Below, one piece after another: positions 3,478-57,410 of a DNA stretch of 64,000 nucleotides. Made by a program: the position numbers and the translations under genes. The stretch's first letter is position 1; the number at the start of each line of letters is the position of its first letter. The notes beneath the pieces are model-generated. The model worked only from the letters and a program-made list of their open reading frames with translations. It searched no databases and was not told the origin of the DNA. Source of the stretch: Omnitrophica bacterium GWA2_41_15. Lineage in GTDB: Bacteria; Omnitrophota; Gorgyraeia; Gygaellales; UBA12090. The stretch is taken from assembly GCA_919902675.1 (NCBI GenBank), contig CAKKRH010000014.1:21393-85392 (forward strand). Direction: 5' to 3'.

Positions 3478-4002
3478 TTATTTCCCTGAAGGCGCCTTAG
3501 TCTTCTTGTAGTTCGCCTGGAGCGTTTCTAAGACCTTAGCGGTAACATCGTTAGCCTTATTACTATAAGCAAATACCCGGTCGTTAAAAATCATAGTATA
3601 GCCTTCTTTTTTGGCAAACTGGGCTGTGGCTTCCTCGATATCTTTAGCTACCTCTTTAAGCCTATCGTCGCCTTCTTTCTTCAGGTCGGTTTCCCTGGTT
3701 AAAGTAAAATCACGCGCCGCCTTAACCTTATCCTCAAGATCCTTCTGTTGCTTTTCCCTCTCGGCTTCAGTAAGCAGATTAAGCTTATCCTGAAGCTGTT
3801 TTATCTCGGAAATCTTGACATCCCGCTCTTTTTCATAAGAGCTGGCTTTCTGCTCAAGGCCCTTGGAATATTCCTTGGTCTTTTCATATTCATCAAAAAG
3901 ATTTCCCACGTCCACCGAGCCAATTTTGTCCGCGGCATAAACCCGGCCTAAAGATAAAAAACCAAATACCGTTATAATACCCACTACCAATGCTTTTCTC
4001 AT
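3478..4002 (-). CDS. skp: OmpH/Skp family periplasmic chaperone
   Basis: 174 aa with a signal peptide (MRKALVVGIITVFGFLSLGRVYA) and a Lys/Glu-rich coiled-coil body. It sits between bamA and lpxD, as in the canonical cluster. Confidence 0.8.
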   Translation of the reverse strand: MRKALVVGIITVFGFLSLGRVYAADKIGSVDVGNLFDEYEKTKEYSKGLEQKASSYEKERDVKISEIKQLQDKLNLLTEAEREKQQKDLEDKVKAARDFTLTRETDLKKEGDDRLKEVAKDIEEATAQFAKKEGYTMIFNDRVFAYSNKANDVTAKVLETLQANYKKTKAPSGK

Positions 4003-4021
4003 CTTCTCTTATCTCCTTTAA

Positions 4022-4199
4022 CCCGGAATTTGCAATAGGATTTCGGCAAAATGTCTCTAAATCCTTGCCAATACTGCGTTATGCTCGCAAAAGTGTCCTC
4101 GGCGTATCGCACCGGATACGCCTGCGGTACTTTTGCTCGCATGCCTTGTCTTGTCAAGGATTTAGGCCATTTTTCTCGAAACCTATCGCAAAATCCGGG
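4022..4199. mobile_element. MITE family B, copy 1 (178 bp)
   Basis: Terminal inverted repeats cccggaatttgcaatagg / cctatcgcaaaatccggg, nested internal palindromes, and a direct 5-bp duplication TTTAA at 4017-4021 and 4200-4204. No ORF. Confidence 0.75.
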
Positions 4200-4235
4200 T
4201 TTAATAATTGTTGTTAATTTCGCGCTTTCCGAGTT

Positions 4236-6785
4236 TCAAAAGCCGTGGCTTAGGCTGAAATGAAACCTGCCTTTTCCTTTTGAAGGCTCACCCGGCTCCT
4301 TGTTTAAGGGCCAGCCATAATCCAATCTCATCGGCCCAATAGGAGTTTTAACCCTCACCCCGAAACCAAAACCTGATTTAAAATCCCCGGAGGCGAAATC
4401 AGACATTTTTCTCCAGACGTTACCGGTATCGTAGAATGCCGCCCCCTTAATGAAATCAACGATGGGATAAAGATATTCAATGTTACCCACCAGCATTGCA
4501 TCGCCTCCGATAGGATCCTTGGATACCGGGTCTATGGGCCCGATTTTTCTTTCGTGATATCCGCGGATGCTGTAGGCGCCTCCGGCGTAAAAACGCTCGT
4601 AAATAGGAACGGTGCCGGTGTTAGCGTAGGCATCGGTTAATCCGGCGCGCAGCCTAAATTCCAAGACCGAAGAATTAAATAAACCGAAATATTTACTGTT
4701 GGCGCTGGTAAACTTGAAGAAATCCTTATCGCCTCCAAAAGGCCCTCCGGCCAGTTCAAATGTCCCGGCTAGGACATAGCCCTTGGAAGGGTTAAAGATA
4801 TTATCCCGGGTATCCCGGGTTAAACCAAACTGCATTGAGCTTATGATATTTGTTCCCACCTCTTTTATCAGATCGGCTGTGGCATCGCTGGAAGCGTTGG
4901 AGATATCCACCTCTTCTATCTTATACATCGTATCGGCCCTAAGATATTCATTCAACTCTTTTCCCAGGCGCAGGTCGCCTCCGGTCCTTTTCTCGCTATA
5001 GCCGTAACCGACATCGGTCTCCCGGTCACGGGCCCTGCGGTAAGCGTCAAAACCAAAGGATACCGGATAATCAAACATCCAAGGCTCGGTAAAACTCATT
5101 TCAAAGTTAGTGGTAATTGAACCGAGTTCCGCCCGAAAACGCAGGTCCTGGCCTCCGCCGGTAAAATAAGGAAAATTCTTCCAGTCAAAATTCTTCTGGG
5201 CTATCTCTACAAAACCTATTAGACTGTCTACCGAGCTGTATCCGCCGCCGAAACTGAACTCTCCGGTCTTGGACTCTTTTACATCCACGACCAGATTCCT
5301 CTTGCTTTGGTCGGGAGAATCCGAAGGCTCAATATCATACCCTACCTCCTCAAAGAAACCCAGGTTCCGCAGGCGCTCCTTACTGCGCTTAAGCTTATCC
5401 CCGTCAAAACGCTCACCCGGGTATATCCTTAGCTCCCTCCTGATAACCTTATCTTTGGTTTTTATATTCCCCCGTATCTTAACCTTGTCCACATAGCCGA
5501 TTATTCCCTCATCTATAGAATAGGTAATATCCACCCGGTCGGTCTCCGGATTTAGATAAGAACTCTCGGAAGCCTGGGCAAAAATATATCCCTTATCAAA
5601 ATAGAGGCCCTGGATATCAGAGGCGCCTTCGTGCATGCTCTCCGGGCTGAAAACCTTACCCGCGCCTAAGGCCTTCAGGGATTTAATTATCTCATCCTCG
5701 CTAAAAACCGTATTACCTTTGACGCGCACGCGGCCGATGGTATACCTTCTTCCCTCTTCAATCCTGATCACCACGAACATCCAGCCTTTTTTTTCCCCGT
5801 AACCGGTTTCGTAATCAATCTTGGCGTCGGTGTAGCCTTCCCGGCGGTAAAAAGACTTTAATCTTTCGATATCATCCTTTAAAAGATCCTCTTTGTAAAA
5901 ACCCGAACTAAAAAAACCCGACCGGCGGCTTTTCATCAGCTTAATCAACCTTTTGGTTTTTAAATTTTTATTGCCGCGGATATCGAATTTCTTTATCTTC
6001 ATCCGGGCGCCGGAATCAATGGTAATGGTAAGGATTACCTTGTTAGTCTCAGGGCTAGTAACCTGGCCTTGAGTTATCCGGGCCTCAGGATAGCCCTTCT
6101 TAACACAGGCATCCTTGATTGTCTGAAGGTCCTCTTTTAATTGAACCTCATCCAGATACTGGCCTTGTTTAAGCTTAATGGTTTCTCTTAATTTCTCTTC
6201 CCGGATTATCCGGGAAAAATATCCCTTGAAAACAATTTTTCCGATAAGCGATTTCTCCGAAACTATAATAAACACCTTAATCCCTTCCTCAAAATCCTGG
6301 GTATCTATCTTGATGTCGCTGAAGTAACCCAATTCATTGACCCGTTTAATATCCTCACTGATAATATTAGTGGAATACAGCGAACCCAGGCGGGTCTTAA
6401 TCTTGGAAAGAATAACCGCTGAGCTAATAAACCTGTTGCCTTGGACCTCAATAGCCGTAATTTTTTTCTCGACAGACGGTTCGGCCCTGCGGTTTGCCGC
6501 AGGCGGGATTTGGGCTAATTTTAAATCTGCTTCAGGCGCGGCACGGCCCACAGCGGCCTCCAAAACAGGTTTTTCTTCGGCTGTCTGGTTAGCCGGGGCG
6601 CTTTGCGAATAAGCTGTTTCCGATAATAAACTTAAGGCGCCAATGATAAAAATCAATCCTTCGACACCACGGGCTAAAGCCCGTAGTTTGCTCAGGATTG
6701 ATACTGAGAGCGGCGCTTTCTTTCCCCGCCCTAAAGGGCGGGGTTTGAGCGCCGCCGAATGTATCAATAAACTCTTTATTCTCAT
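4236..6785 (-). CDS. bamA: outer membrane protein assembly factor BamA
   Basis: 849 aa with POTRA-like repeats and a C-terminal beta-barrel ending in ...RFHFSLSHGF (terminal aromatic residue). Codons 7-46 are encoded by repeat family C (see findings). Confidence 0.9.
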   Translation of the reverse strand: MRIKSLLIHSAALKPRPLGRGKKAPLSVSILSKLRALARGVEGLIFIIGALSLLSETAYSQSAPANQTAEEKPVLEAAVGRAAPEADLKLAQIPPAANRRAEPSVEKKITAIEVQGNRFISSAVILSKIKTRLGSLYSTNIISEDIKRVNELGYFSDIKIDTQDFEEGIKVFIIVSEKSLIGKIVFKGYFSRIIREEKLRETIKLKQGQYLDEVQLKEDLQTIKDACVKKGYPEARITQGQVTSPETNKVILTITIDSGARMKIKKFDIRGNKNLKTKRLIKLMKSRRSGFFSSGFYKEDLLKDDIERLKSFYRREGYTDAKIDYETGYGEKKGWMFVVIRIEEGRRYTIGRVRVKGNTVFSEDEIIKSLKALGAGKVFSPESMHEGASDIQGLYFDKGYIFAQASESSYLNPETDRVDITYSIDEGIIGYVDKVKIRGNIKTKDKVIRRELRIYPGERFDGDKLKRSKERLRNLGFFEEVGYDIEPSDSPDQSKRNLVVDVKESKTGEFSFGGGYSSVDSLIGFVEIAQKNFDWKNFPYFTGGGQDLRFRAELGSITTNFEMSFTEPWMFDYPVSFGFDAYRRARDRETDVGYGYSEKRTGGDLRLGKELNEYLRADTMYKIEEVDISNASSDATADLIKEVGTNIISSMQFGLTRDTRDNIFNPSKGYVLAGTFELAGGPFGGDKDFFKFTSANSKYFGLFNSSVLEFRLRAGLTDAYANTGTVPIYERFYAGGAYSIRGYHERKIGPIDPVSKDPIGGDAMLVGNIEYLYPIVDFIKGAAFYDTGNVWRKMSDFASGDFKSGFGFGVRVKTPIGPMRLDYGWPLNKEPGEPSKGKGRFHFSLSHGF
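6648..6767. repeat. Repeat family C, copy 1 (~120 bp, two hairpins), embedded in frame in the bamA 5' end
   Basis: Near-identical, in inverted orientation, to 8792-8914. It contains the hairpins tcaatcct...aggattga, cacgggctaaagcccgt and ccccgccctaaagggcgggg. Confidence 0.8.
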
Positions 6786-10191: not shown

Positions 10192-10752
10192 TTAATTATA
10201 CTTATTCATCGCTGTTTCTATTCCCTCTTTCAACCAGCATAAAACCGCCTCTTTCGCCGTATCCAGAGACTGACGGATCGACTTCTTTTCAGAGGAAGAG
10301 AAATTAGTCAATACAAAATCGCCTAAATCCTGATTTTTTTCAGGTAAAGATATCCCGATACGCAGGCGGCTGAATTCATTTGAACCTAAAACCTTAATAA
10401 TGGAATTCAGCCCTTTATGGCCTCCGGAGCTTCCTTTGGCCCTGATTCTTAACCTGCCCAGCTCCAGGCTTATATCGTCGCAGACAACCAGGATATCCCG
10501 CGGGTTGAGCTTATTTATTGTTTTCAGCTTCAAGACGCTCTCACCGGAAAGATTCATATAGGTAAGAGGCTTGCATAAAATAACATCTTCTTTATTAAAA
10601 AAAGTTGTTGCCCGCGTTGAGCGGCTCTCTCTGTCAAGCTTAAACTCAAGCAGTAACTCTTTAGCAAGACCGTCGAGAGCCATAAAACCCAAATTATGCC
10701 GGCTGTTTCTATATTCCAGGCCGGGATTTCCTAAACCTACAACCAACTTCAC
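10192..10752 (-). CDS. pth: peptidyl-tRNA hydrolase
   Basis: 186 aa (MKLVVGLGNPGLEYRNSRHNLGF...), the canonical Pth N-terminus. Confidence 0.9.
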   Translation of the reverse strand: MKLVVGLGNPGLEYRNSRHNLGFMALDGLAKELLLEFKLDRESRSTRATTFFNKEDVILCKPLTYMNLSGESVLKLKTINKLNPRDILVVCDDISLELGRLRIRAKGSSGGHKGLNSIIKVLGSNEFSRLRIGISLPEKNQDLGDFVLTNFSSSEKKSIRQSLDTAKEAVLCWLKEGIETAMNKYN

Positions 10753-10794
10753 GATTGCGGCCTCCGAAAGCCTCTATTATCCTGGAGCTTACCA

Positions 10795-10815
10795 TTCCTA
10801 TCGCAAAATCCAGGA
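10795..10815. repeat. possible solo terminal-repeat remnant of MITE family B
   Basis: attcctatcgcaaaatccagga closely resembles the right end of copy 1 (acctatcgcaaaatccgggt). No matching left end lies nearby. Confidence 0.3.
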
Positions 10816-10836
10816 TTATGCGGAATTATAAACCGG

Positions 10837-11544
10837 CTACTTTTTCTCTCCCGGAGCTGCCTTGGCAGAAACACCCTCCGCGCCTTCAGCCTTTTCCTTC
10901 TTCTCCTTAATCACTTCGGGCTCAGCCTTTGCCCCTTGTGCCAATGTTTCTTCAGCTGTTGGCGCGGCTTCTTCCTTGGTCGGAGCGACTACCGCTAATA
11001 CTGTCGCTTCAGGATCATTAAATACCTTCAAGCCTTGAGGGATAATCAGATTCCGGACATGAATAGAATCACCCACTTTTAAAGCAGTAACATCCACCTC
11101 AACTGACTTGGGTATCTGGGTAGGCAAACACTCAACCTCAATCTCCCAGAGGATATGATCCAATACCCCGCCGTCCTGTTTTACCCCCACAGACTCACCC
11201 TTGGCGGCAACCGGAACCTTTACTCTTATTTTTTTAGTCAGAGAAATCTGATTAAAATCAATATGCACTACATCGTCGGTGACCGGATTATGCTGGACAT
11301 GCTTGATCAAGACCGCCTTGTCTTCATTTTTCAGGTCTTCTTTTATCCTCAGGTTCAAAACAAAAGACTCACCGTGATGCGCCGACATTAAATTCACAAA
11401 ATCCTTTGAACGCACCTGTATAGTAAGCGTTTTTCGTCCTTCGCCGTAAACCACTGCCGGGATAATTGCCTGCTTACGCAGACGGTTAACCCTGCCTGTG
11501 CCTGTATCTTTTCTCATCTGCGCTTCTAAAATTATCTCTTCCAT
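10837..11544 (-). CDS. rplY: 50S ribosomal protein L25 / general stress protein Ctc
   Basis: The L25 N-domain is followed by a Lys/Glu/Ala-rich tail. The ATG at 11544 (MEEIILEAQ) is preferred because GGAG lies 6 nt upstream; the ORF-track start at 11556 is a GTG. Confidence 0.85.
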   Translation of the reverse strand: MEEIILEAQMRKDTGTGRVNRLRKQAIIPAVVYGEGRKTLTIQVRSKDFVNLMSAHHGESFVLNLRIKEDLKNEDKAVLIKHVQHNPVTDDVVHIDFNQISLTKKIRVKVPVAAKGESVGVKQDGGVLDHILWEIEVECLPTQIPKSVEVDVTALKVGDSIHVRNLIIPQGLKVFNDPEATVLAVVAPTKEEAAPTAEETLAQGAKAEPEVIKEKKEKAEGAEGVSAKAAPGEKK

Positions 11545-11564
11545 TCGTCGCTCCACTCCTCATA

Positions 11565-11649
11565 TCGCGAAACTACGCCGAACTATACGCGGAATCGCGC
11601 AATAAAGGTTGTGCGTAGTTCCGCGTACTATTCCGCGTGGTTCAGCGAT
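11565..11649. repeat. Repeat family A (ACGCGGAAC palindromic element), copy 1
   Basis: atcgcgaaactacgccgaactatacgcggaat...tgtgcgtagttccgcgtactattccgcgtggttcagcgat. It starts 1 nt after the prs stop codon. Confidence 0.8.
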
Positions 11650-11650
11650 T

Positions 11651-12589
11651 TTAATCAAATAATGAACTGACCGATTCTTCGCCGTGAATCCTCTTGATTG
11701 CCTCGCCAAAAAGTTCGGCTGCCGATAAAACCTTTATCCGGATATTTTTCTTGGAATCATCCAGAGGAATACTGTCAGTAATCACCAGCTCTTTAAGTTT
11801 TTTACATTTCTCTATCCGCTCAAGGGCCGAACCGCAAAGCACGCCATGAGTAATTGCCGCCCGGATTTCCTTGGCCCCCCGCTGGCTAAGAATCTCTACA
11901 GCTTCAATCAGTGAAGAACCGGTAGAGATAAGGTCATCAACCAAAAGGACATTTTTACCTTCAACATCGCCTAAGATATGCACCGCCTCGGTAGACTCTG
12001 GAGAAATCCGGCGTTTATCTACGATAGCCAGCCCTGCCTCCAGCCTCTTGGCATAAGCCCTGGCCATTTTAATACCGCCCACATCGGGAGAAACCACCAC
12101 CAAATCACTTAACTTCAACTTTTCAAAATACTCCACCATAACACCCACGGCAAAAAGATGGTCTAAGGGTATATCAAAGAAACCCTGAATCTGACCGGCA
12201 TGCAAATCCATGGTAAGAACCCGATCCGCCCCGGCCACAGTAATCAGATTAGCTACCAGCTTTGCCGTAATAGGAACTCTGGGCTGGTCCTTACGGTCCT
12301 GGCGGGCATAGCCGTAATACGGCATGACCGCGGTGATTCGTTTTCCGGAGGCCCTTTTCAGGGCATCAATAATAATCAAGAGTTCCATCAGGCTGTCATT
12401 AACCGGAGTACAGGTCGGCTGGACAACAAATACATCCTTACCACGAATATTTTCTTCTATTTTAACCCTGATTTCTCCTTCGCTGAACCTTCCCACCAAG
12501 CATTCAGAGAGCTTGATCTTAAGATACCTGCAGATTTTTTTGGCTAATTCCGGATTGGCATTACCAGTAACTACGGCTAATTTATCCAT
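11651..12589 (-). CDS. prs: ribose-phosphate pyrophosphokinase
   Basis: Start reassigned to the ATG at 12589 (MDKLAVVTGNANPELAKKI...). The 43-aa upstream extension in the ORF track reads through repeat A and overlaps glmU. Confidence 0.9.
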   Translation of the reverse strand: MDKLAVVTGNANPELAKKICRYLKIKLSECLVGRFSEGEIRVKIEENIRGKDVFVVQPTCTPVNDSLMELLIIIDALKRASGKRITAVMPYYGYARQDRKDQPRVPITAKLVANLITVAGADRVLTMDLHAGQIQGFFDIPLDHLFAVGVMVEYFEKLKLSDLVVVSPDVGGIKMARAYAKRLEAGLAIVDKRRISPESTEAVHILGDVEGKNVLLVDDLISTGSSLIEAVEILSQRGAKEIRAAITHGVLCGSALERIEKCKKLKELVITDSIPLDDSKKNIRIKVLSAAELFGEAIKRIHGEESVSSLFD

Positions 12590-12595
12590 ATAATG

Positions 12596-12681
12596 ATCGC
12601 TGAACTTACGCGGAACGCAACGCGGAACCACGCTTGATATGTTGTGCGTAGTTCCGCGTCCTGTTCCGCGTAGTTCCGCGC
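12596..12681. repeat. Repeat family A, copy 2
   Basis: atcgctgaacttacgcggaacgcaacgcggaaccacgc...tgtgcgtagttccgcgtcctgttccgcgtagttccgcgc. It overlaps the glmU stop codon by 1 nt and ends 6 nt before the prs ATG. Confidence 0.8.
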
Positions 12682-13943
12682 TATCCAATCGTCTTTCTAA
12701 GCGTCCTGGCCGGCACACCTACCACCACTTCTCCGGCAGAAACATCCTTGATTATCACCGAACCGCACCCTGTAACCGCCTTCTTCCCGATTTTGACCGG
12801 AGCTCTTAATATTGTATCGGAGCCGATAAAGGCTCCTTCTCCTATGACCGTCTTCTGCTTATTCTTACCGTCAAAATTAGCCGAAACAGTGCCGCAGCCG
12901 ATATTCACCGACCTCGAAACCAGGCAATCACCCAAATAACTAAAATGCTTCATCAGGGTATCCTGGCCAATGCGCGAGCGGACTACTTCGGTAAAATTAC
13001 CAATCACCGCTTTATCTTCAATCCTGGTGCCCGGCCTTAAATGACAAAAAGGCCCGATTGAGCAGAATTTTTTAATTATAACATCTTTTTCAATAACTGT
13101 AAAGGGATAAATTACGGTATCCCGGCCTATTTTACATCCGGCTTCTATATAGGTAGTATCCGGGTCAATAATACTAACCCCGGAGGCCATAAAATTGTCT
13201 AAGATCCGCTGGCGCATAATCTTTTGAGCCTGAGCCAAATCTATCCGCGAATTTATCCCCTGGGCCTCCCGGACATCTTGGCTTATACATAAAGACTGAA
13301 TAGCCTCACCCATGGCCGCCATTATCTTTATGGCGTCGGTTAGGTAATATTCCTTCTTGGCATTATCCGGTTTTATCCTGGCTATGGCCTTAAAAAGAAT
13401 ATCCTTCTTAAAACAAATTATCCCGGTATTTATTTCTTTGACGCTTTTTTGCTCCTGGGAGGCGTCTTTTTCTTCCACAATAGCCTGGACTCGGCCGTAA
13501 TTATCCCGGATAATCCTTCCGTATCCAAAGGGATTATCCATGCAGGCAGTCAAAATAGTAGCCGAGGCAAGGCTGGAAATATGCCTCTGGATAAGCTTCT
13601 TTAGGGTCGCGGCCTTTAAAAGCGGCTGGTCACCGTAAAGAATCAATAGATTTCCCGAAAAACCTTTCAGGGCGCTCTCTGTTCTTCGGACGGCATCGGC
13701 AGTGCCCACCAGCCTGTCTTGATATACGCTATCGGCCTGATATTCGGTGAGAATGCCCCGCAATAACTCCCTGCCATGGCCGGTGATAACGATGGTCCGG
13801 TCCAACTTAAGTGTTTGGGCCAAATCCAAGACATAGGCCAGCATCGGGCGGCCGCAAAGAGGATGCATCACTTTAGGGATTTCCGACTTCATCCGCGTGC
13901 CCTTACCCGCCGCCAAAATTATTCCCGCGAAATTATAGTTCAT
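12681..13943 (-). CDS. glmU: bifunctional UDP-GlcNAc pyrophosphorylase / GlcN-1-P N-acetyltransferase
   Basis: 420 aa with the N-terminal nucleotidyltransferase motif (IILAAGKGTRMKS) and a C-terminal hexapeptide-repeat acetyltransferase domain. Confidence 0.9.
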   Translation of the reverse strand: MNYNFAGIILAAGKGTRMKSEIPKVMHPLCGRPMLAYVLDLAQTLKLDRTIVITGHGRELLRGILTEYQADSVYQDRLVGTADAVRRTESALKGFSGNLLILYGDQPLLKAATLKKLIQRHISSLASATILTACMDNPFGYGRIIRDNYGRVQAIVEEKDASQEQKSVKEINTGIICFKKDILFKAIARIKPDNAKKEYYLTDAIKIMAAMGEAIQSLCISQDVREAQGINSRIDLAQAQKIMRQRILDNFMASGVSIIDPDTTYIEAGCKIGRDTVIYPFTVIEKDVIIKKFCSIGPFCHLRPGTRIEDKAVIGNFTEVVRSRIGQDTLMKHFSYLGDCLVSRSVNIGCGTVSANFDGKNKQKTVIGEGAFIGSDTILRAPVKIGKKAVTGCGSVIIKDVSAGEVVVGVPARTLRKTIG

Positions 13944-13990: not shown

Positions 13991-14356
13991 TCAATAATTT
14001 ATCAACCCCGATAACATCTTGCAGGTTTCATCAAGATTCTCTTTCAATGCTTTGTGTTTTTCTTCCCCTATTAATTTCTTTCGCTTACACAACTCAAGTA
14101 TCGGGATACACTCAAAAGCAGATCCTCGCGAAATCCTAAAAAAATTCTTTCTATCTGCTTTGCCATATCTGCCGTTACCCTCGGCAATATTGGCTGCAAT
14201 CGATAAAGCCGCACGATTTAACTGGTCGGTAAGATAATAATTGCCTTTTGAAAAACCTTCTGTCAGGCTGCTAATTTCGTCAGCAAAAGCGACCGCTTTC
14301 TGATAAACCTTGAGATTCTCAAACATAAAAGGCATAAGATTCCACCTTTTGAACAA
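13991..14356 (-). CDS. four-helix-bundle protein (23S rRNA intervening-sequence protein family)
   Basis: The motifs FENLKVYQKA...LTDQLNRAALSIAANIAEGNGR...FFRISRGSAFE are typical of this family. The true start may be an internal Met at 14335 or 14326. Confidence 0.75.
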   Translation of the reverse strand: MFKRWNLMPFMFENLKVYQKAVAFADEISSLTEGFSKGNYYLTDQLNRAALSIAANIAEGNGRYGKADRKNFFRISRGSAFECIPILELCKRKKLIGEEKHKALKENLDETCKMLSGLINY

Positions 14357-14461
14357 TAGAGCAATAGAAAATAGACCGCAATTGAGCTTTTATTTTTTTC
14401 TATTGCTCAATTTTCTATTGCTCAATTGCTCTACCAATTTTTGGCAAAGCCAAAAATTGGT
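14349..14461. repeat. Repeat family D, copy 1 (gaacaataga.../...ctattgctcaattgctc) plus a terminal hairpin
   Basis: Shares gaacaatagaRcaat...gaccgcaattgagc...ctattgctcaattgctct with 48190-48344 and 51828-51969. It ends in the hairpin ccaatttttgg-caaag-ccaaaaattgg, which overlaps the tRNA CCA end. Confidence 0.7.
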
Positions 14462-16017: not shown

Positions 16018-16937
16018 ACAATCTTACCGCAGGCGACAATGATATCCTCAAGCGAAAGTCCGTATTCCTTAATCAGCTCATCCGGCTCGCCGGACTGTCC
16101 ATAGCGGTTCTTTACCCCTACGCGCATAACTTTGACCGGATAATTCTCAGCCACGATTTCATCTACCGCTGACGCCAACCCGCCCGTCACCGTATGCTCT
16201 TCACAAACCACAATGCCTTTGGTTTCCCTCGCCGCTTCTATTATTGCCTGAGAATCAATAGGCTTTACGGTGTGCATATTAATCACCCGGCAGCTGAGGC
16301 CTTTTTCTTTGAGACGGCCCGCGGCCTCAAGGGCGGATTTTACCATTATTCCGCAGGCAATTATAGTCAGATCATTTCCCGGGTTCAACACCTGGGCTTT
16401 GCCGAATTCAAAGGCATATCCCGCGGTTACCGTGGGAACCTTTGGCCGGCCTAATCGCACGTATACCGGGCCAGGAGTATTATAGGCCGCGATTACCGCC
16501 TCACGGGCCTGGGGCCCGTCAGCCGGGACAATAATCTTCATAGTCGGGACTATACGCATCAGGGCGATATCCTCCAAGGCCTGATGCGATGCCCCGTCCG
16601 GACCCACACTCACTCCGGCGTGAGTAGCCACAATCTTAATGTTAAAGTTATTATAGGCGGCGGTATTTCTTACCTGATCCCAGGCCCTTCCGGTGGCGAA
16701 TATGGCAAAGGTTGAAAGAAACACTATTTTTCCGCAAGCGGCCAGACCGGCTGAGGCGGCCACCATATTCTGTTCAGCCACCCCGAAATTAACAAACCTA
16801 TCCTTAAATTCTTTGGCAAAAAGACAGGTGCGGGTTGAGCCGGAAAGGTCAGCATCCAAAACCACAATATTGGAATCTTTCTTACCCAGCTCAATTAAGG
16901 TCTGTCCGTACACATCACGCTGATATAACATCTCCAT
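16014..16937 (-). CDS. transketolase, C-terminal (pyrimidine-binding) subunit
   Basis: 307 aa (RFVNFGVAEQNMV...) with the transketolase Pyr and C-terminal domains. It pairs with the N-terminal subunit at 17114-17935. Confidence 0.9.
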   Translation of the reverse strand: MEMLYQRDVYGQTLIELGKKDSNIVVLDADLSGSTRTCLFAKEFKDRFVNFGVAEQNMVAASAGLAACGKIVFLSTFAIFATGRAWDQVRNTAAYNNFNIKIVATHAGVSVGPDGASHQALEDIALMRIVPTMKIIVPADGPQAREAVIAAYNTPGPVYVRLGRPKVPTVTAGYAFEFGKAQVLNPGNDLTIIACGIMVKSALEAAGRLKEKGLSCRVINMHTVKPIDSQAIIEAARETKGIVVCEEHTVTGGLASAVDEIVAENYPVKVMRVGVKNRYGQSGEPDELIKEYGLSLEDIIVACGKIV

Positions 16938-16955
16938 AGTATTAATTATAACAGT

Positions 16956-17113
16956 TTAATGTCGAATTCCCTAATGACCAATAACTAATGAATAACAAAT
17001 TCTTTAATGAGTCAATGTCCAAAATGATTATTTTTATATGTGTAAATTATAGACATTTGGTCATTGAGACATTAGACATTCATTCGTCATTCTGATTTCG
17101 TCATTCGACATTT
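16956..17113. repeat. Repeat family E, copy 1 (taatgtcgaatt...gatttcgtcattcgacatttt)
   Basis: Long imperfect hairpin of AATGNC-type words, homologous to 41527-41660. It fills the spacer between the two transketolase subunits and overlaps the upstream stop codon. Confidence 0.7.
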
Positions 17114-17935
17114 TTATTCAAGTTCTTTTAGTGCCTTTTCCGCCTCTTCCTTGGTAGGGGCGCGGCCGTGAAAATCCAGGACATTTTCCATAAAAGAAAC
17201 CCCCTTACCTTTTATGGTGCGGGCAATGATAATGGAAGGCTTTCCTTTTATTGTCTTGGCTTCCTCGTAAGCGCTGAGTATCTCTTTAATATTATGCCCG
17301 CTTATCTCTATAGTATGCCAGCCGAAAGAACGCCACTTATCGGCCAAAGGCTCTAAATTCATAATCTCTTTAGTGCATCCGTCAATCTGAAAGCCGTTAT
17401 GATCAATCATCGCGCAGAGATTGTCACACTTATAGTGGGCGAGCGCCATAGCCGCTTCCCAGACATTACCCTCCTGGGTCTCACCGTCTCCCATCAAGCA
17501 ATACACCCTGTAAGATTTCTTGTCCATTTTAGCGGCCAGACTCATTCCCAGGGCCACGGATAAGCCCTGGCCCAAAGAACCGCTGGCCACCTCTACTCCG
17601 GGAACCTTACGGTCCGGATGCCCCTGAAGTATTGAACCCAGTTTACGCAAGGTCCAAAGATGTTCCGGAGGAAAATATCCTGATTCCGCCAGCACCGCGT
17701 AAAGCGCCGGACAGCAGTGGCCCTTAGAAAGATGAAACCTGTCCCGATCCGGCCACTGAGGATCCTTAGGATTATGACGCAAAACTTTAAAATAAAGGCA
17801 GGTCAATAAGTCCGTGGAAGAAAGGCTTCCTCCGGGATGGCCCGAACCGGCCTTAACCAGCATTTTAATAATCAGCCGGCGCGTTTCCTTGGCCTTATCC
17901 TCTAAAAGCTGTATTTCTTTCTCCGTAGAGCCCAA
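17114..17935 (-). CDS. transketolase, N-terminal (ThDP-binding) subunit
   Basis: 273 aa with GSGHPGGSLS and the GDG...E.N ThDP motif (CLMGDGETQEGNVWEA). Confidence 0.9.
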   Translation of the reverse strand: MGSTEKEIQLLEDKAKETRRLIIKMLVKAGSGHPGGSLSSTDLLTCLYFKVLRHNPKDPQWPDRDRFHLSKGHCCPALYAVLAESGYFPPEHLWTLRKLGSILQGHPDRKVPGVEVASGSLGQGLSVALGMSLAAKMDKKSYRVYCLMGDGETQEGNVWEAAMALAHYKCDNLCAMIDHNGFQIDGCTKEIMNLEPLADKWRSFGWHTIEISGHNIKEILSAYEEAKTIKGKPSIIIARTIKGKGVSFMENVLDFHGRAPTKEEAEKALKELE

Positions 17936-19270: not shown

Positions 19271-19364
19271 TTTGCGAACCGCGAAACTACGCGGAATTTC
19301 ACGCGGAAACACGCGATACAATTTGTGCGTGGTTCTGCGCAGCGTTCAGCGTAGTTCCGCGGTT
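19271..19364. repeat. Repeat family A, copy 3
   Basis: gcgaaccgcgaaactacgcggaatttcacgcggaaacacgcg...tgtgcgtggttctgcgcagcgttcagcgtagttccgcgg. It begins about 3 nt after the hisG stop codon. Confidence 0.75.
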
Positions 19365-19367
19365 TTT

Positions 19368-20246
19368 CTAATATATTAACTTATTTAACGGATACTCGAT
19401 AATCCCCTCGGCTCCAGCTTCCTTAAGCTGGGGAATTATATTACGCACAACCTTTTCTTCAATTATAGTCTCAACCGCCAGCCAGCCTTCTTTAGCTAAG
19501 CCGGATACTGTGGGATTTTTCAGGGCCGGTAAAATACCGGTTACTTTCTTTAGGTTTATCCGCCTCACATTCATCTTCAGGCCAACCTTGCCCTCAGCCT
19601 GGATTGCCCCTTTTAATAAAAGGCAAATCTGCCGCATTTTGGCTTTTTTCCAGGAGTCTTTATAAGAAGCATTGTTAGCGATAAACTGGGTAGTGGAGAA
19701 GATTATCGCGGTAATTTCTCTTAGTTTATGCGCCCGCAGGCTTCTGCCGGTTTCAGTCAGCTCCACAATCGCGTCCACTAAACCGGAGGCTACCTTAACC
19801 TCGGTCGCCCCCCAGCTAAACTCCACATCGGCGTTAACCTTATTTTTCTTTAAAAATTCCTTGGTAGCGTTAACTAATTCCGTGGCAATAATTTTTCCCT
19901 CTAAATCCTTAACGCTCTTTATATTTGAGCTCTCCGGCACAGCCAGCACCCAGCGCACCGGATTCAGGCTCTGTTTGGCGTATACCAGCTCTTCTACCCG
20001 CGTCACATCCGAGCCATTTTCTAATATCCAGTCATTTCCGGTAACCCCGCAGTCCAGCGCTCCATCCTCAACATAGCGGGACATCTCCTGTGCCCGCAAG
20101 AGAACCGGCTCAATCTCCGGGTCATCAATAGAAGGCAGATAAGACCTTTCCCCCACATGCACATTAAAACCCGCCTTCTTAAACATACTGAAGGTGGCCT
20201 CCTGCAGGCTTCCTTTAGGCAAACCGAGTTTTAATATTTTTTTCAT
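19368..20246 (-). CDS. hisG: ATP phosphoribosyltransferase (long form)
   Basis: 292 aa ([12 protein letters not shown]...) with the C-terminal regulatory domain present. Confidence 0.9.
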
Positions 20247-20341
20247 TTCTATTATTGAAATCCTTTCTTGCCATCAGCTTAATATAAAATCTTAACAATT
20301 ATACAACCCATAAATCAAAATGTAAAGCAAAAAGAATATTG

Positions 20342-20369
20342 TTGCTTTTGGCGCTTTAAAAGGTATAAT
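20342..20369 (+). promoter_or_regulatory. putative sigma70-type promoter (TTGCTT-N16-TATAAT), 8 nt upstream of the ATG at 20378
   Basis: Read directly as ttgctt ttggcgctttaaaagg tataat tataaatt ATG. No Shine-Dalgarno sequence. Confidence 0.4.
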
Positions 20370-20377
20370 TATAAATT

Positions 20378-21865
20378 ATGTTAAAAATATTGCGTCAAAA
20401 AAAGCGGGCTCAGAAAATAATCCTCTCAGGAATGGTCGTGGTAATGGTCTTCGCCTTTGTGCTTTGGGGAGCCGGGGCCTGGAAGCAGAGTTCTAAAGAA
20501 TCCAACTATTCCGGAGTGATCTTTGGCCGCCGGGTTTCTAACCCGGAATTTAGAAAAATACGGCTTTCCTGCCTGAATGACCTCAAGTTCAGGTTCGGAG
20601 AAAATTATAATGTCCTCCTGCAGTTTGTTGACCTGAATAACCAGGCCTGGATAAAACTGATTCTGCTGGAGTATGCCAAAAAACAAAAAATTACCGCCTC
20701 CAACCAGGAGGTAATTGATGAAATTGCCTCTAATCCTTTGTTTTCCAAAGACGGTAAATTCAATCAGGATACCTACGGCAGAATAATCCGCTATTTTCTG
20801 GGCAGCCAGCCCCGCGAATTCGAGGAGCAAACCCGCAATAACCTTATTATCCGCAAACTCTATGTCCAGGCCACCAAGGATGCCGCCCTGACCGACACGG
20901 AAGTCTTGGAGGCTTACAAAAAAGACAATGAGACCTTAAGCGTCCATTATATCCAAACTGACTCTAAAAACTTTCTTTCTGATATAAAAACAAGCGAAGA
21001 CGAGCTTAAAGACTATTATCAGAAAAACTCAAGTCAGTTCAAACGCCCTCCCACGGTAAAAATCGAATATATAGGAATAGACTACCCCCCGGACTCCAAA
21101 GAAGCCCAGATGATAGGCGTATCCGAGCAGATGAACAATATCCATTCTAAAATCAAGAAATCAAGCGAGTTAAAAAGCCTTGCCGGGGATAATGTTATCC
21201 ATAAGGAAAGCGGCTTCTTTGCCTCAGATGAGCCCTTAGAGGGCATTGAGTCTGAAGAATTCTATAAGTATGCTTTTAGCCTGGGCGCCGGTCAAGTCAG
21301 CCCGGTAATCAAAACCTTAAAAGGCGTATATATCCTTAAGGTGATCCGAAAGAAGGACCCTTATATCCCGGAATTAACCGAGACAAGGCCTAAGGCAGAG
21401 GAGGCGCTGAAATTAATCAAGGCTAAAGAAGAAGCCAGGAAGAAAGCCGAAGATTACAGAAATAAGATTGACGGTTATCTCAAGAACGATCAGGCGATAA
21501 ATTTAAAAAAGGCCGCTGAGCTTTTAGGAGTAGAATTAAAAACCACTCCCGCTTTTAAACGCGGCCAGGCAATTCCGGACGCGGACATAGACCTAAGTGT
21601 CTTAAATTCCGCCTTTGAGCTTAAGCCGGGTGAAATAAGCCCGATTTTAGAAGGCGCGAAAAGTATTTTTATTGTCGAGCCGGATAAATTCACCGGAATT
21701 GACCAGGAAAAATTCAAGCAAGATAAAGCGGCCTTCTCCGAAAATCTTTTGGAAAAGAAAAAACAGGATGCCTTTAACTCCCTCCAGAGCCAGCTCATTG
21801 GCCAGGCCAATCTCAAGCAATACATCTCCTCATCATCCGCCTTTCCAGATATAGCTGACCAATAA
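20378..21865 (+). CDS. PpiD/SurA-family periplasmic chaperone, parvulin-type peptidyl-prolyl isomerase
   Basis: 495 aa with an N-terminal anchor (KIILSGMVVVMVFAFVLWG), a SurA-N-like region and a parvulin-like segment (VSPVIKTLKGVYILKV). It is the only plus-strand gene in the window. Confidence 0.7.
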   Translation: MLKILRQKKRAQKIILSGMVVVMVFAFVLWGAGAWKQSSKESNYSGVIFGRRVSNPEFRKIRLSCLNDLKFRFGENYNVLLQFVDLNNQAWIKLILLEYAKKQKITASNQEVIDEIASNPLFSKDGKFNQDTYGRIIRYFLGSQPREFEEQTRNNLIIRKLYVQATKDAALTDTEVLEAYKKDNETLSVHYIQTDSKNFLSDIKTSEDELKDYYQKNSSQFKRPPTVKIEYIGIDYPPDSKEAQMIGVSEQMNNIHSKIKKSSELKSLAGDNVIHKESGFFASDEPLEGIESEEFYKYAFSLGAGQVSPVIKTLKGVYILKVIRKKDPYIPELTETRPKAEEALKLIKAKEEARKKAEDYRNKIDGYLKNDQAINLKKAAELLGVELKTTPAFKRGQAIPDADIDLSVLNSAFELKPGEISPILEGAKSIFIVEPDKFTGIDQEKFKQDKAAFSENLLEKKKQDAFNSLQSQLIGQANLKQYISSSSAFPDIADQ

Positions 21866-21867
21866 AA

Positions 21868-21898
21868 ATGGCGGCCCGGTTTTGCCGGAGGCCGCCAT
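21868..21898 (+). terminator. stem-loop after the ppiD-like gene
   Basis: atggcggcc-cggttttgccgga-ggccgccat begins immediately after the stop codon. The U-tract is weak. Confidence 0.4.
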
Positions 21899-21901
21899 TA
21901 T

Positions 21902-22059
21902 CCCGGATTTTGCAATAGGAATGCGGCACCGAGACGCCAAAGAAGGATGCAGATTTGGCAGAAAAAAGTGCGCGCATACTTTTAGTATGTAAGCGCTTTT
22001 TTCTGACGAAGATGCGCCCTTATTTGGCGGCGAATGCCATTACTATTGCAAATTCCGGG
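21902..22059. mobile_element. MITE family B, copy 2 (158 bp)
   Basis: TIRs cccggattttgcaatagg / ctattgcaaattccggg, with a direct 5-bp duplication ATTAT at 21897-21901 and 22060-22064. The interior forms a long imperfect hairpin. Confidence 0.75.
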
Positions 22060-22106
22060 ATTATATACTTTTTATGTATGTCTAACGCTTGAATTCAGGG
22101 TTTAAT

Positions 22107-22322
22107 TTATGCTGATACCGGGGTCAGACTAAATACACGCGCGATCTTCGTTGCCCTCTGCAGGGAGCCTTCTCGCAAAGCTTCCCTTACCTCATCTATC
22201 TTTTGGGCATCTTCAAGAGAAAGATACGGCGACCAGCCATCTCCGGTATCAAGAATCTCCACATCAATTTCCGCGACATATTTGCCCTCGTGCACGAGTT
22301 TTGTATGCTGCCTCTTTGTCAT
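22107..22322 (-). CDS. 71-aa hypothetical protein
   Basis: The ATG at 22322 is preceded by a GGAGG RBS (MTKRQHTKLVHEGKYVAEIDVEILDTGDGWSPYLSLEDAQKIDEVREAL...). I recognise no domain. Confidence 0.5.
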   Translation of the reverse strand: MTKRQHTKLVHEGKYVAEIDVEILDTGDGWSPYLSLEDAQKIDEVREALREGSLQRATKIARVFSLTPVSA

Positions 22323-22371
22323 ATTCGCCTCCTGGTAAAATTGTCTGTCCACATATTTACATCCGGCCTAT

Positions 22372-22442
22372 AAAAAAAGGGGTCAGAGTCATTTTTGAAT
22401 TGTTGTTGTCTCACAAGCAAAAATGACTCTGACCCCTTTTTT
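22372..22442. terminator. ~25-bp perfect inverted repeat flanked by A- and T-tracts (bidirectional terminator-like)
   Basis: aaaaaaaggggtcagagtcatttttg ...loop... caaaaatgactctgacccctttttt. It lies between the 776-aa gene and the 71-aa ORF. Confidence 0.6.
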
Positions 22443-22522
22443 GAATGTTCTGCTCACAACTAAATTATATCACCACAGAGATAAAATATCTATAGATAAG
22501 ATTAAGAAATCTGGAAATCCGC

Positions 22523-24853
22523 TTAACTCATGCCCGCCTTTTGGCTATTAGGCAAGAGGACGAATTTAGCGGTGTCCACAATCACCAGCGACTCTCTAAG
22601 TTCCGGGCTAGTTTCCAGATTCTCTTCCTCTGCCAAGCGGTAGATCTCAGCCAGACAGACTAACAAATCATCCTGTTTTTCCTCAATCTTACCCTTCTGG
22701 AAGCAGGCGGCCAGATATTCCTTAACCCTCTCTCCCGAAGGCACCATCCCGGCCTTGACCATATCGCGCAAGGCCTCTAACTCCTCATCCAAGTCAAGCC
22801 TCTCCAGCGCGCTGATAGTTAAGGTAGGCAGGCCAAAGCGCAAATCCTTAAAGCTCCCCATCGGCTGGACCAGATAATTCATAGCTCGAAAATCAATACC
22901 GCCGACATTTTTAAGAGCAGGTTTAGAAATTGTCTCCATTGAGGAAGAAGCCATAATCTCTGCTATCTTTTTATCAACCATTTCCTGCAGGCTCTCATTT
23001 CCTTTAGGATTCTGAATAACGTAGCCTATAATTTCTCCTACCTCTTGTATGGCAGGGTTACGGTCAATCTTTTCCCGGAATCTTTCCACAATAGATTTTA
23101 CATATTTCTCACTCGCAGCACCCGTTTGCCCTACGATTCTCTTTACTACAGCCTCCGCATCAATTTCTAGCTTTTCCCAATCTTCCTGAAGCTGTTTTAA
23201 CTCGGAAATGCTACCCCTTAATGTTAATAATCTTGGTCCTGATCGCACCGCGTATCCTTCCGGCAGAATATTTACCAATAATTCCTTACCATAAAAGCCT
23301 CTTCTCTCAGAAAGCATCTCTACAATTTCCTTTATTTCTTCCCCCTTTTCTATTTTTATTCTTGTGCCGTCTCGGTAAAAAGTCTTTAAATAAGATAACA
23401 TTCTACCAATATCTTGAAAGCCGCTTTCCGCAATTTCAATCTCCCCCCTGTTCTTTTGCTCGCTTAATTTCTCAATATTAAGCATTTTTTCAATATCCTT
23501 CACTATAACCCACAATCTTCTTTCAAGCTTTCGCATTTCTTCTATCTGCTTAAGAGAAAGAGAATCCATATCTTTCCGCCTTGCCTCCATCGGCGAAGAG
23601 CCTTTTTCTCCATTAGCCGTACCTGGCTCAAGCACAATTATTTTAACTCCTATATTGTTTCCGTATGTTGTAAAATAAAGTTTTTCAGTCTGTTCGTTTG
23701 GTTTAAGTTTATAACCTTGGACACTAACAACATCAAGGTGTCCTTTATCTTTACTAACATCATGGTATGTATTCTCGGTCATCACTGGACTGCTTATGGC
23801 CATCCCCCCGCTGACATAGCTCCTGATTGCCTGACCAGTAGGGGTGACTACCTGCTCTTTAAGGTTATATTCGCCTTGTTCAAAGGATTTCTTGTATTCA
23901 TTAAAGTAGTAGGTTTTATCCCAGGCCTCTTTAGAAGTAAGGTTAGTGAGATTATGGGAATCTATGAGTTTAACATAGGAGTTGCTATTCTGTGGACTAT
24001 GGACTGTGGACTGTGGACTGAATGTTTCTTTGAACCAGCGGGCCATTACCAGAGAAAAAAAGACCTGGCGAAGGGCGGCGTAGCGCTTGGAGATGTTTAC
24101 CTTTTTGGTCAGCTTAGGGATAATCAGCTCCCGGATAAGCCGGGTGGAGTATTCGTTGAGCTCCTTCATCCTGGGATCTTTGAAATTATATTGCTGAGAG
24201 TTGATAGCTGACGGCTGAGAGCTTAAGTAATCATGTTCTAACATCACCTTCATATTGGCCTTAAAGATATAGGCCGAGTCTTCTCCTTGCCTTAAGATTA
24301 TCTCTCCCGGGACTATCCAAGGCCGGGTGATGGTGGGAATGGTGATGTTTTCACTGCCGAATAGCTCTCCGGCCTTCTTATAAAGCTTGTCCCAGTATTG
24401 CTTACCTTCCGGGGTCTGGGGCGAGGTCAGGCCGGCGGTGTCCTTCTTTAACTGCAGGTCGGCCTCAAGCATAACCTTACCCATATCGGTTTTCTCAAGC
24501 TCCGGGTCTATCATCTGGTCCGGGGCGTCCGGCCTTAGGTTGACCCAGAACTTCTCATTAGGCAGGGCCAGGCCAATCTGGAAATACTCCATCAGCACCT
24601 TGGTCTTTTCCTCTAATTCAGCTTCTTTAATATCCTTATTGTCTCCCTTATCTAAGAGTAACTGAAAATCATCCTTCTCTATATCGTATGAGAAATAGCG
24701 CATATGTAAGGGGCGGAACCTGTCCGCTGCCAGGCTGCTGCCTACGGTATGCAGGTAGGTTCCTATGTTAAGCTGGGCTACTCCCTGGGCAAAGATGGGC
24801 TGACCTGTAATCAGGGTCCAAGACAAAAGAATAGAGATTATCTTCTTTAGCAT
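22523..24853 (-). CDS. 776-aa secreted protein of unknown function
   Basis: Signal peptide MLKKIISILLSWTLITGQPIFAQG and a GGAGG RBS. The middle is Lys/Glu-rich and coiled-coil-like, and the C-terminal region contains VGGIDFRAMNYLVQP. I cannot name a domain. Confidence 0.7.
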   Translation of the reverse strand: MLKKIISILLSWTLITGQPIFAQGVAQLNIGTYLHTVGSSLAADRFRPLHMRYFSYDIEKDDFQLLLDKGDNKDIKEAELEEKTKVLMEYFQIGLALPNEKFWVNLRPDAPDQMIDPELEKTDMGKVMLEADLQLKKDTAGLTSPQTPEGKQYWDKLYKKAGELFGSENITIPTITRPWIVPGEIILRQGEDSAYIFKANMKVMLEHDYLSSQPSAINSQQYNFKDPRMKELNEYSTRLIRELIIPKLTKKVNISKRYAALRQVFFSLVMARWFKETFSPQSTVHSPQNSNSYVKLIDSHNLTNLTSKEAWDKTYYFNEYKKSFEQGEYNLKEQVVTPTGQAIRSYVSGGMAISSPVMTENTYHDVSKDKGHLDVVSVQGYKLKPNEQTEKLYFTTYGNNIGVKIIVLEPGTANGEKGSSPMEARRKDMDSLSLKQIEEMRKLERRLWVIVKDIEKMLNIEKLSEQKNRGEIEIAESGFQDIGRMLSYLKTFYRDGTRIKIEKGEEIKEIVEMLSERRGFYGKELLVNILPEGYAVRSGPRLLTLRGSISELKQLQEDWEKLEIDAEAVVKRIVGQTGAASEKYVKSIVERFREKIDRNPAIQEVGEIIGYVIQNPKGNESLQEMVDKKIAEIMASSSMETISKPALKNVGGIDFRAMNYLVQPMGSFKDLRFGLPTLTISALERLDLDEELEALRDMVKAGMVPSGERVKEYLAACFQKGKIEEKQDDLLVCLAEIYRLAEEENLETSPELRESLVIVDTAKFVLLPNSQKAGMS
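23993..24020. repeat. heptanucleotide tandem repeat (tggactR x4) inside the 776-aa CDS
   Basis: Read directly as tggacta tggactg tggactg tggactg. The unit length is not a multiple of 3. Confidence 0.8.
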
Positions 24854-25025
24854 TTTAGCTACCTCCGGAAGGATTTTTGGGGTGGATTTTTGGGTTATTT
24901 TGTAGTGTATTCATATTGTAGCTAAAATATACCACAAGAAAAGACAAAAACAAGGTCCAGGCCGTGTTTTTGAGAAAGCGCTTTCTTGGGGAGGAGTTAT
25001 CGTCGGAGAAGTAAAAAGCGGGGTG

Positions 25026-25066
25026 AAAAAATAAATAAAAAGGCGGCCCGCGTGTTACAGGCCGCC
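25026..25066 (-). terminator. rho-independent terminator after the ferredoxin gene
   Basis: Minus-strand read: GGCGGCC-tgtaacacgcg-GGCCGCC followed by TTTTTATTTATTTTTT. Confidence 0.7.
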
Positions 25067-28514: not shown

Positions 28515-28516
28515 TT

Positions 28517-28771
28517 TTAGTCTTCCTTTACCATTACAATATCTTTTTTAGGACAAACTGCCGCGCAATTACCACAGCCTTTACAAAAGTTAGAATCGTA
28601 ATCGTAGGTATTTTTGGCTTCGCCGGTTATGCAGGCCTCCGGGCAGATCAAAACGCACATTTTACAGGCAATGCAATCTTTCTTTAAGAACTTAGGCTTA
28701 TGCTCGACCCGCCAGGAACCGGTTTTATTCGCTTTGGATGTGGAAGGCTTGGAAATTAACGGGCCAAACAT
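28517..28771 (-). CDS. porD: pyruvate:ferredoxin oxidoreductase delta subunit (2x[4Fe-4S])
   Basis: 84 aa with two Cys clusters, CIACKMCVLICP and CKGCGNCAAVCP. Confidence 0.85.
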   Translation of the reverse strand: MFGPLISKPSTSKANKTGSWRVEHKPKFLKKDCIACKMCVLICPEACITGEAKNTYDYDSNFCKGCGNCAAVCPKKDIVMVKED

Positions 28772-29337: not shown

Positions 29338-29409
29338 CTGAAAATTCCTTTTTAAATTCTATTGTTCTGAAGATTTATGACGGATTAACACACGGAAGTT
29401 ATAATTATA

Positions 29410-29844: not shown

Positions 29845-29846
29845 TT

Positions 29847-39069: not shown

Positions 39070-39132
39070 TTTATCCCTCCGTCTCTATAAAAACCCTCAA
39101 TTGACAATCTTTTAAGCTTTTACTATAAACTG

Positions 39133-41496: not shown

Positions 41497-41526
41497 CCCT
41501 CCTTGTATAATATGTGTAATAGCCTG

Positions 41527-45046: not shown

Positions 45047-45064
45047 TATTATCTTAGTATTTAA

Positions 45065-45156: not shown

Positions 45157-45157
45157 T

Positions 45158-51760: not shown

Positions 51761-51784
51761 TCTCTTGTCTCCTTACAGTTTTAT

Positions 51785-51826: not shown

Positions 51827-51827
51827 C

Positions 51828-57397: not shown

Positions 57398-57410
57398 AAT
57401 ATTTATTTTA

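Follow-up and report, generated by a model that had tools for sequence, protein, structure and literature searches.

Results

Four short elements lie in spacers of housekeeping operons

The window, i.e. the whole 64-kb stretch of DNA analysed here, holds four short elements, all of them intergenic, located in housekeeping operons and given here without strand; the genes next to copies 1 and 2 and the remnant were assigned by Pfam. Copy 1 (4022-4199, 178 bp, subfamily A) lies between the stop codon of bamA (4236-6785, minus strand) and the ribosome-binding site of skp/ompH (3478-4002, minus strand), at a site upstream of lpxD-lpxC/fabZ-lpxA. It is bordered by TTTAA at 4017-4021 and 4200-4204, and the skp Shine-Dalgarno sequence (ttAAAGGAG) starts with bases from the second copy of this 5-mer. 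A 34-bp remnant (10781-10814), bordered by ATTAT at 10776-10780 and 10815-10819, is found between rplY/ctc (10837-11556, minus strand) and pth (10192-10752, minus strand). A SurA/PpiD-like PPIase gene (20378-21865, plus strand) has a GC-rich, terminator-like hairpin, and copy 2 (21902-22059, 158 bp, subfamily B; ATTAT at 21897-21901 and 22060-22064) sits just past it. Copy 3 (45065-45156, 92 bp, one-armed subfamily B), with TTTAA at 45060-45064 and 45157-45161, separates the stop codon of leuA (45158-46660, minus strand) from an ORF of 150 amino acids (44594-45046, minus strand) that is located upstream of aroE. The duplication at 45157-45161 contains the leuA stop codon and, in the sense of the mRNA, the junction reads GGT-TAA-A, MITE, TTAAA, so that leuA retains its stop codon in the first of the two 5-mers.

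Proteins identical to those of the window occur in Hainich aquifer groundwater metagenomes, the named relatives of LeuA are from Candidatus Omnitrophota, and a MAG of the same phylum (L032) is collinear with window positions 19769-25045 at 75-92% nucleotide identity. Several contigs from the same population (L126-L129) terminate within copy 1, as expected of a dispersed repeat. The source genome is also represented by a long-read contig of 444 kb (ENA ERZ1286166 contig_3842).

The elements share their ends and a 5-bp duplication

The three longer elements and the remnant have in common a 17-bp terminal inverted repeat (TIR), CCCGGAWTTTGCRATAG, and all are of MITE size (34-178 bp). With up to three mismatches, the 18-mer CCCGGAWTTTGCAATAGG occurs seven times in the window as opposed to a mean of 0.32 in 100 dinucleotide-preserving shuffles, none of which reached seven, and this excludes chance repeats. 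The core is conserved over 17 bp, while G or A is found at position 18 and position 7 varies. The original prediction had described three copies with shared ends of about 18 bp, perfect 5-bp target-site duplications (TSDs; TTTAA, ATTAT and TTTAA) and at least two subfamilies using the same ends. On re-reading of the sequence the positions of copies 1-3 proved exact and the three duplications were found; comparison of the elements bore out the subfamilies, and the shared TIR stands with its core refined to 17 bp. Copies 2 and 3 do share an interior that is distinct from copy 1, as had been proposed, but copy 3 is a one-arm deletion form rather than a full member of the subfamily: it shares 98.7% identity with the right arm of copy 2, lacks the left arm and is 66 bp shorter. 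Similarly, what had been taken for a solo end at 10795-10815 is indeed end-like, but it belongs to a two-ended 34-bp remnant with a TSD of its own. The remnant reads CCTGGA-gcttaccatt-CCTATCGCAAAATCCAGG and retains both tips and a complete right TIR (10797-10814, two mismatches to the 18-mer); CCTGGA, 16 bases upstream of this TIR, is the exact inverted partner of the TCCAGG tip. Since ATTAT brackets the remnant on both sides, the window has four elements, every one of which carries a perfect 5-bp duplication.

Copies 1 and 2 form end-to-end hairpins when folded as DNA (-46.5 and -51.6 kcal/mol; z -8.5 and -9.35), in agreement with the hairpin interiors that had been predicted for all copies, whereas copy 3 pairs mainly via its TIRs (z -4.3). 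The interiors had also been said to contain no ORF, and the only ORFs overlapping the elements are indeed short (≤75 amino acids) and run across element borders. Likewise, the reported lack of a transposase in the window was upheld, as tblastn with the partner transposase described below gave no match anywhere in the 64 kb. Promoter and terminator scans around all three copies returned nothing above the shuffled background and no Rfam family matched the elements at gathering thresholds, the sole match being a tRNA.

The family recurs in several phyla

Scanning 185,579 species genomes with CCCGGAWTTTGCRATAG yielded at least 111 loci. It should be noted that an exact 17-mer was required at one end, so that conservation of the TIR is partly a matter of ascertainment and many single matches are due to chance; by simple arithmetic a few hundred chance matches are expected in that much DNA, and a single TIR match accordingly means little. 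Many such matches were discarded as chance or as conserved coding sequence, e.g. a Caulobacterales gene and Desulfobacterales oxidoreductases. Among the matches listed, 25 are paired elements in which two inverted ends lie 28-389 bp apart and across which the 17-bp core is conserved. The original prediction hinged on the flanking 5-mers being duplicated at other copies as well, and a perfect 5-bp TSD is present in 18 of these 25 (null rate 0.0019 at the same loci and the same spacing); duplications of 3, 4, 6 or 7 bp were found at none of the paired elements, and only a length of 5 fits.

Paired elements are hosted by Omnitrophota, Elusimicrobia, Chitinophagales/Bacteroidia and one unclassified bacterium, with near-perfect cases in Nitratifractor, Fibrobacteraceae and the isolate Algoriphagus zhangzhouensis DSM 25035. 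Homologues of copy 1 (L090 and L101; 75-82% identical) are present in two other Omnitrophota MAGs, a homologue of copy 2 (L087; 95% identical) in an Omnitrophota MAG that is collinear with the window, and full-length homologues of copy 2 at about 70% identity among 157-bp elements of Elusimicrobia. No TIR with two mismatches or fewer was found in 62 metagenomic loci around skp homologues (an estimated 280 kb or so), indicating that the family has expanded in particular lineages only, and viral contigs scanned for paired ends 154-184 bp apart gave no match. Some elements consist of little more than their ends, such as the back-to-back TIR pair of 39 bp in L003 (6687-6725) and, in Candidatus Omnitrophus magneticus, an element of 51 bp flanked by a perfect TTAAA duplication (L091:4767-4817). 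Together with the 34-bp remnant, these TIR-only forms suggest that the ends may suffice for mobility. Tiny TIR-only or tip-only remnants also occur at L062:3750-3780 and L058:4415-4430, and some directly abut a full MITE.

Empty sites in close relatives indicate recent activity

Sites with a single copy of the target, which the original prediction had led one to expect in related genomes, were found for copy 3. In L196, whose LeuA is 95% identical, the leuA-orf150 spacer is 11 nt long and contains a single TTAAA and no element (ggTTAAAtactaa; in a fuller stretch, ...gttggTTAAAtactaaaacgATG), and in L195, with a LeuA identity of 98%, there is again a single TTAAA and no copy 3. L195 carries an unrelated insert of about 135 nt with a GGGGTCAGCGGACGCTGACCCC hairpin three bases beyond its TTAAA (L195:1910-2050, orthologous to window 45047-45160), and the leuA-orf150 spacer apparently acts as a hot spot of small insertions. 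Copy 1 is missing from L130-L133 (Skp 85% identical), in which the bamA-skp spacer measures about 40 nt and is diverged (TATAAGGAG versus TTAAAGGAG in the window), with TATAA where the window has TTAAA. The copy 2 site in L032 (5002-5777, orthologous to window 21878-22514) aligns poorly; it shows one TIR, CCCGGAATTTGCAATAG, abutting TAATGG, and the adjoining spacer has about 750 bp that cannot be aligned to the window spacer, plus unrelated genes. This lone TIR could have arisen by deletion between the TAATGG(C) repeats present in window copy 2.

Copy 2 is 95% identical to L087, whereas the genes around it show an identity of only 75-92% between these two genomes. This better conservation, together with insertion polymorphism at 95-98% LeuA identity, points to recent activity, and we conclude that the MITE family is real and recently active.

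An IS1380-family insertion sequence has the same ends

The original prediction left the autonomous partner unknown and proposed a search for a longer element with the same ends and a transposase; such an element exists in other genomes. When the ORFs located inward of TIR matches were compared, one protein recurred in two phyla, namely in L007 (Omnitrophica) and L092 (a Chloroflexi bin), with lengths of 441-454 amino acids and 73% identity. The partner is an IS of 1438-1470 bp (1437-1439 bp on retrieved contigs) with one gene, encoding a DDE transposase of 436 amino acids, and the L007 protein matches both Pfam PF13701 (DDE_Tnp_1_4; E 2.7e-46) and NCBIfam NF033539 (transpos_IS1380; 262.3 bits, cut-off 180). 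Its carriers (L007, L092, L112-L119 and L192-L194) have the ends CCCGGATTTTGCAATAG...CTATTGCAAAATCCGGG around a single ORF; in L007 the gene lies between CCCGGATTTTGCAATAGG and ...GGCTATTGCAAAATC, beyond which the record is masked. The IS ends read CCCGG..., and the termini match at 17/17 to 18/18 positions at both ends of at least nine full-length IS1380-family elements. As judged by the curated model, the type of its ends and the TSD, the partner IS is a member of the IS1380 family, and the previously unnamed partner can thus be given as an IS of this family with identical ends, known from related genomes.

The IS ranges over other Omnitrophota, a Chloroflexi bin and a finished Aliarcobacter plasmid. 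At E≤1e-30 its transposase has 3157 relatives in the protein database, several of which are named 'IS1380 family transposase' in Omnitrophica, and most of the relatives' contigs are 1.4-2 kb long, as expected of a repeat that breaks assemblies. The abundant ENA transposase clusters P0039 and P0005 come from samples other than the source aquifer, and a PDB sequence search with the transposase gave no match at E≤1. On metagenomic contigs, full-length ISs have the TSDs TTAAA (L119) and TTTAA (L192). Five others on short contigs (L092, L117, L118, L193 and L194) have unequal flanks, probably because multicopy repeats were assembled into chimeras or because copies recombined with each other; they were left out of the TSD evidence, and all of their flanks still fit the target consensus. 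In L115 (73-1338) and L116 (18-1283), a copy of the IS1380 clade without its left end has a DDE_5 (IS701-like) transposase gene immediately upstream, an arrangement that suggests nested IS insertions.

The finished plasmid pACIB of Aliarcobacter cibarius H743 (NZ_CP043858.1; L199-L203) encodes transposases 47% identical to the L007 protein and contains four IS copies with intact boundaries and perfect TSDs (ATAAT, ATTAA, TTTAT and ATAAA), one of which splits a DMT transporter gene. The same plasmid also holds an IS1380-clade copy interrupted by an IS5 (211796-214799) and a rearranged composite in which two IRR-type ends surround an IS630 (26366-29941).

The clean sites, 24 in number (18 MITEs, two metagenomic ISs and four plasmid ISs), define the target W-T-N-A-W: T at position 2 and A at position 4 are present in all 24, the first and last positions are A or T and the central one is unconstrained, TTTAA or TTAAA being the commonest. 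MITEs and ISs agree both in TSD length and in this target. An origin of the MITEs by internal deletion of the IS was considered and rejected, as arm positions 18-40 are identical to the IS ends at no more than 12 of 23 positions. The similarity between MITE and IS stops at nucleotide 17, and what links the two is hence their ends, TSD length and target, and not a deletion series.

The arms of the palindrome co-vary

Alignment A3 comprises the 157-158-bp subfamily, i.e. window 21902-22059 with L087, L059, L064, L031, L033, L096 and L088 from Omnitrophota and Elusimicrobia. In this alignment 92% of the cells are paired compared to 80.4% after shuffling, and double changes occur in 23 of 55 pairs where 10.9 ± 2.1 are expected; in controls with the partner slid by 1-3 columns only 3-7 pairs show double changes. 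Covariation far above both the shuffled and the slid controls argues that the palindrome is actively maintained and not merely inherited. G-U and A-C cells show no clear strand asymmetry (nine pairs versus six by manual count), which favours a cause at the level of DNA, e.g. symmetry needed for or produced by propagation of the element, over selection on one RNA strand.

At position 7 of the TIR, A at one end is combined with T at the other in 14 of the 25 MITEs among the matches listed, for instance at window positions 4028 and 4193, 21908 and 22053, and 45071 and 45150, so that the hairpin has a conserved A-A or T-T mismatch. T stands at this position in nearly all ends of the 1437-1439-bp ISs and of the 1461-bp copy on pACIB, and the two 1470-bp copies on pACIB vary.

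Discussion

The ends, duplications and targets described above lead us to believe that the window elements are very probably non-autonomous MITEs of an IS1380-family clade, most likely moved by the IS1380-family transposase found in related genomes. Judging from the DDE chemistry of this family and the anatomy of the elements, a full-length IS located in another part of the genome or population would provide the transposase in trans. The enzyme would bind both terminal repeats, cleave at the CCC/GGG tips and join the element to target strands cut 5 bp apart, and gap repair of the 5-bp stagger would create the W-T-N-A-W duplication. Stop codons and A+T-rich spacers are similar to the target, and insertions within genes would be lost; this combination may explain why the survivors sit in the spacers of housekeeping operons (bamA-skp, ctc-pth and leuA-orf150), where the duplicated 5-mer restores a stop codon or the start of a ribosome-binding site. 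The long palindromic interior stays symmetric over time, with decay proceeding by loss of one arm, as in copy 3, or of nearly everything, as in the 34-bp remnant. An effect of the hairpins on operon mRNA is possible.

A transposase of another family that generates 5-bp TSDs, be it of Tn3-type TIMEs, IS3, IS1634 or ISH3, could in principle move the elements, with the match to IS1380 ends being coincidental, since a 5-bp TSD is not exclusive to IS1380 and the window contains no transposase of any kind linked to the elements. We consider this very improbable: termini identical at 17/17 to 18/18 positions at both ends of nine or more full-length elements would have to agree by coincidence, as would the TSD length and the W-T-N-A-W target, and all-against-all comparison of the ORFs beside TIR matches disclosed no other recurring transposase. 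Moreover, Tn3-family ends are about 38 bp long and begin with GGGG, whereas the present ends begin with CCCGG. Even less credence, practically none, is due to REP/BIME-like or other host palindromes spread by RAYT or recombination, or to chance repeats, in either of which the flanking 5-mers would be part of the repeat. The genome is admittedly rich in other intergenic palindromic repeat families; here, however, the flanking 5-mers vary from copy to copy (TTTAA, ATTAT, TTGAA, TTCAA and others) and are direct, not inverted, empty sites contain exactly one copy of the 5-mer, and the seven TIR matches against 0.32 expected speak against the chance version.

Two further readings deserve mention. 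The TIR clade may represent a cross-phylum IS1380 group with CCCGGAWTTTGCRATAG ends that is the closest prokaryotic mechanistic analogue of piggyBac, given its CCC/GGG tips and near-palindromic TTNAA, and palindromy of the MITEs may be a requirement of the reaction, e.g. through a hairpin or fold-back DNA intermediate or regeneration of lost arms by fold-back synthesis, and not a matter of mere descent. What supports this is the target logo and the arm covariation, and we regard it as unlikely, if somewhat less so than the proposal that elements which are MITEs by origin are now kept by the host as structured RNA or DNA signals in operons, e.g. as hairpins that stabilise or process bamA-skp mRNA. 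Such retention would supplement the MITE interpretation and is compatible with it. Roles in mRNA stabilisation or processing have been proposed for REP, ERIC and Correia elements. The hairpins here are very stable and have arms that co-vary across subfamilies (the 23 double-change pairs against 10.9 expected), and copies 1 and 3 and the remnant, having genes of like orientation on both sides, would be transcribed. Against host retention, copy 3 is missing at 95-98% LeuA identity and copy 1 at 85% Skp identity, and insertions that are polymorphic among very close strains are not conserved features of an operon. Furthermore, no promoter- or terminator-like signal exceeded the shuffled background, no Rfam family matched, the balance of G-U and A-C cells argues against selection on one RNA strand, and the hairpin has been lost in copy 3 and in the remnant.

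Several bacterial repeat families invite comparison with these MITEs. The Correia/NEMIS elements of Neisseria and the Tn3-derived TIMEs are likewise short, palindromic, intergenic, co-transcribed and non-autonomous, and TIMEs also have a 5-bp TSD. Correia elements have 26-bp TIRs and duplicate TA, whereas the TIRs described here differ in sequence, are 17-18 bp long and come with a 5-bp TSD. The ends of TIMEs are of the Tn3 type and about 38 bp long, and neither Correia nor TIME ends match CCCGGAWTTTGCRATAG. REP/BIME sequences lack a TSD and consist of a short imperfect palindrome with a conserved GTAG-type head and a linked RAYT gene, unlike the present elements, which have TSDs and an empty site and whose termini match an IS1380-type IS.

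ISfinder describes the IS1380 family as producing 4-5-bp target duplications and having short inverted repeats (IRs) that start with CC. The partner IS is like IS1380, IS1247, ISPme1 and ISEcp1 in its single ORF, short CC-starting IRs, 5-bp TSD and A+T-rich targets; it differs in that its target is defined as W-T-N-A-W, and the window elements differ from the family in being without transposase and only 34-178 bp long. With matches on Klebsiella plasmids, which we take to be of the ISEcp1 type, the partner transposase shares an identity of only about 27-28%. At 1438-1470 bp the partner IS is also shorter than IS1247, which measures 1672 bp and has an IR of 16/13 and a DR of 5 bp (PMC3281130). 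ISPme1 and ISEcp1 are capable of one-ended mobilisation of adjacent DNA as 'transposable modules' (PMC9330008), a different derivative from the two-ended MITEs found here, and a two-ended MITE derived from IS1380 was not reported in the literature as searched. The IS1182-related MITEPye1 of Paracoccus yeei agrees with the present elements in being small and intergenic, with IS-matching TIRs, direct repeats, no transposase and a stem-loop predicted to be long (PMC11578231). It differs in IS family, ends, TSD and hosts, and the present family spans several phyla and has TIR-only mini-forms.

As judged from the logo of the clean sites, W-T-N-A-W brings to mind the TTAA at which piggyBac, to which IS1380 is distantly related, inserts. 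The termini of piggyBac read CCC...GGG, and the likeness to the present elements lies in these termini and in the palindrome-like TT(N)AA target. piggyBac duplicates the 4 bp TTAA, whereas the elements described here duplicate 5 bp with a free centre and W on the outside; because the 4-bp TTAA duplication is defining, they resemble piggyBac and are not members of that group. IS1380 transposases have been treated as distant prokaryotic relatives of piggyBac and used as an outgroup (PMC10140906; PMC10813416), and for this reason the definition of the target is of some interest.

The elements are ordinary mobile DNA, and the view of how MITEs or IS1380 elements work is unchanged. What the analysis provides is an explanation for contig breaks and unannotated intergenic repeats in MAGs of Omnitrophota and Elusimicrobia, a tie between a MITE family and the IS1380 family, for which the literature as searched described no MITEs, and a sharp W-T-N-A-W target set for the present IS1380 clade. 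Since the insertions are polymorphic between strains with 95-98% identity, they can be used as markers with which to trace recent changes in the genomes of uncultured bacteria from groundwater. The related autonomous IS in a cultured Aliarcobacter strain offers a possible experimental host for the IS clade, and if the analogy to piggyBac were to hold, the clade could become a tractable bacterial model for piggyBac-type chemistry and for the origin of palindromic MITEs.

Apart from the MITEs, the window contains other palindromic repeats. A separate intergenic family, unrelated to the IS1380-type MITE, is present at 11564-11661, 12597-12694, 19278-19375, 57310-57400 and 59452-59555; its copies consist of about three tandem ACGCGGAAC-type motifs, a loop and reverse-complement motifs (GTTCCGCGT). 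Further families of hairpin repeats, in which a motif repeated three times is followed by a loop and by the inverted motif three times, are located at 14347-14432, 48226-48346 and 51848-51971, at 16936-17114 with 41507-41660, and at 39126-39164 with 51774-51841. Their motifs are of the GAACAATAGA/TTGCTCAATTGCTC type, the AT-rich TAATGTCGAAT/GACATTAG type and the CCGTCAACTGT type, and the copies at 48226 and 51848 are followed by a second hairpin, GTGCGCTGTCA...TGACAGCGCAC.
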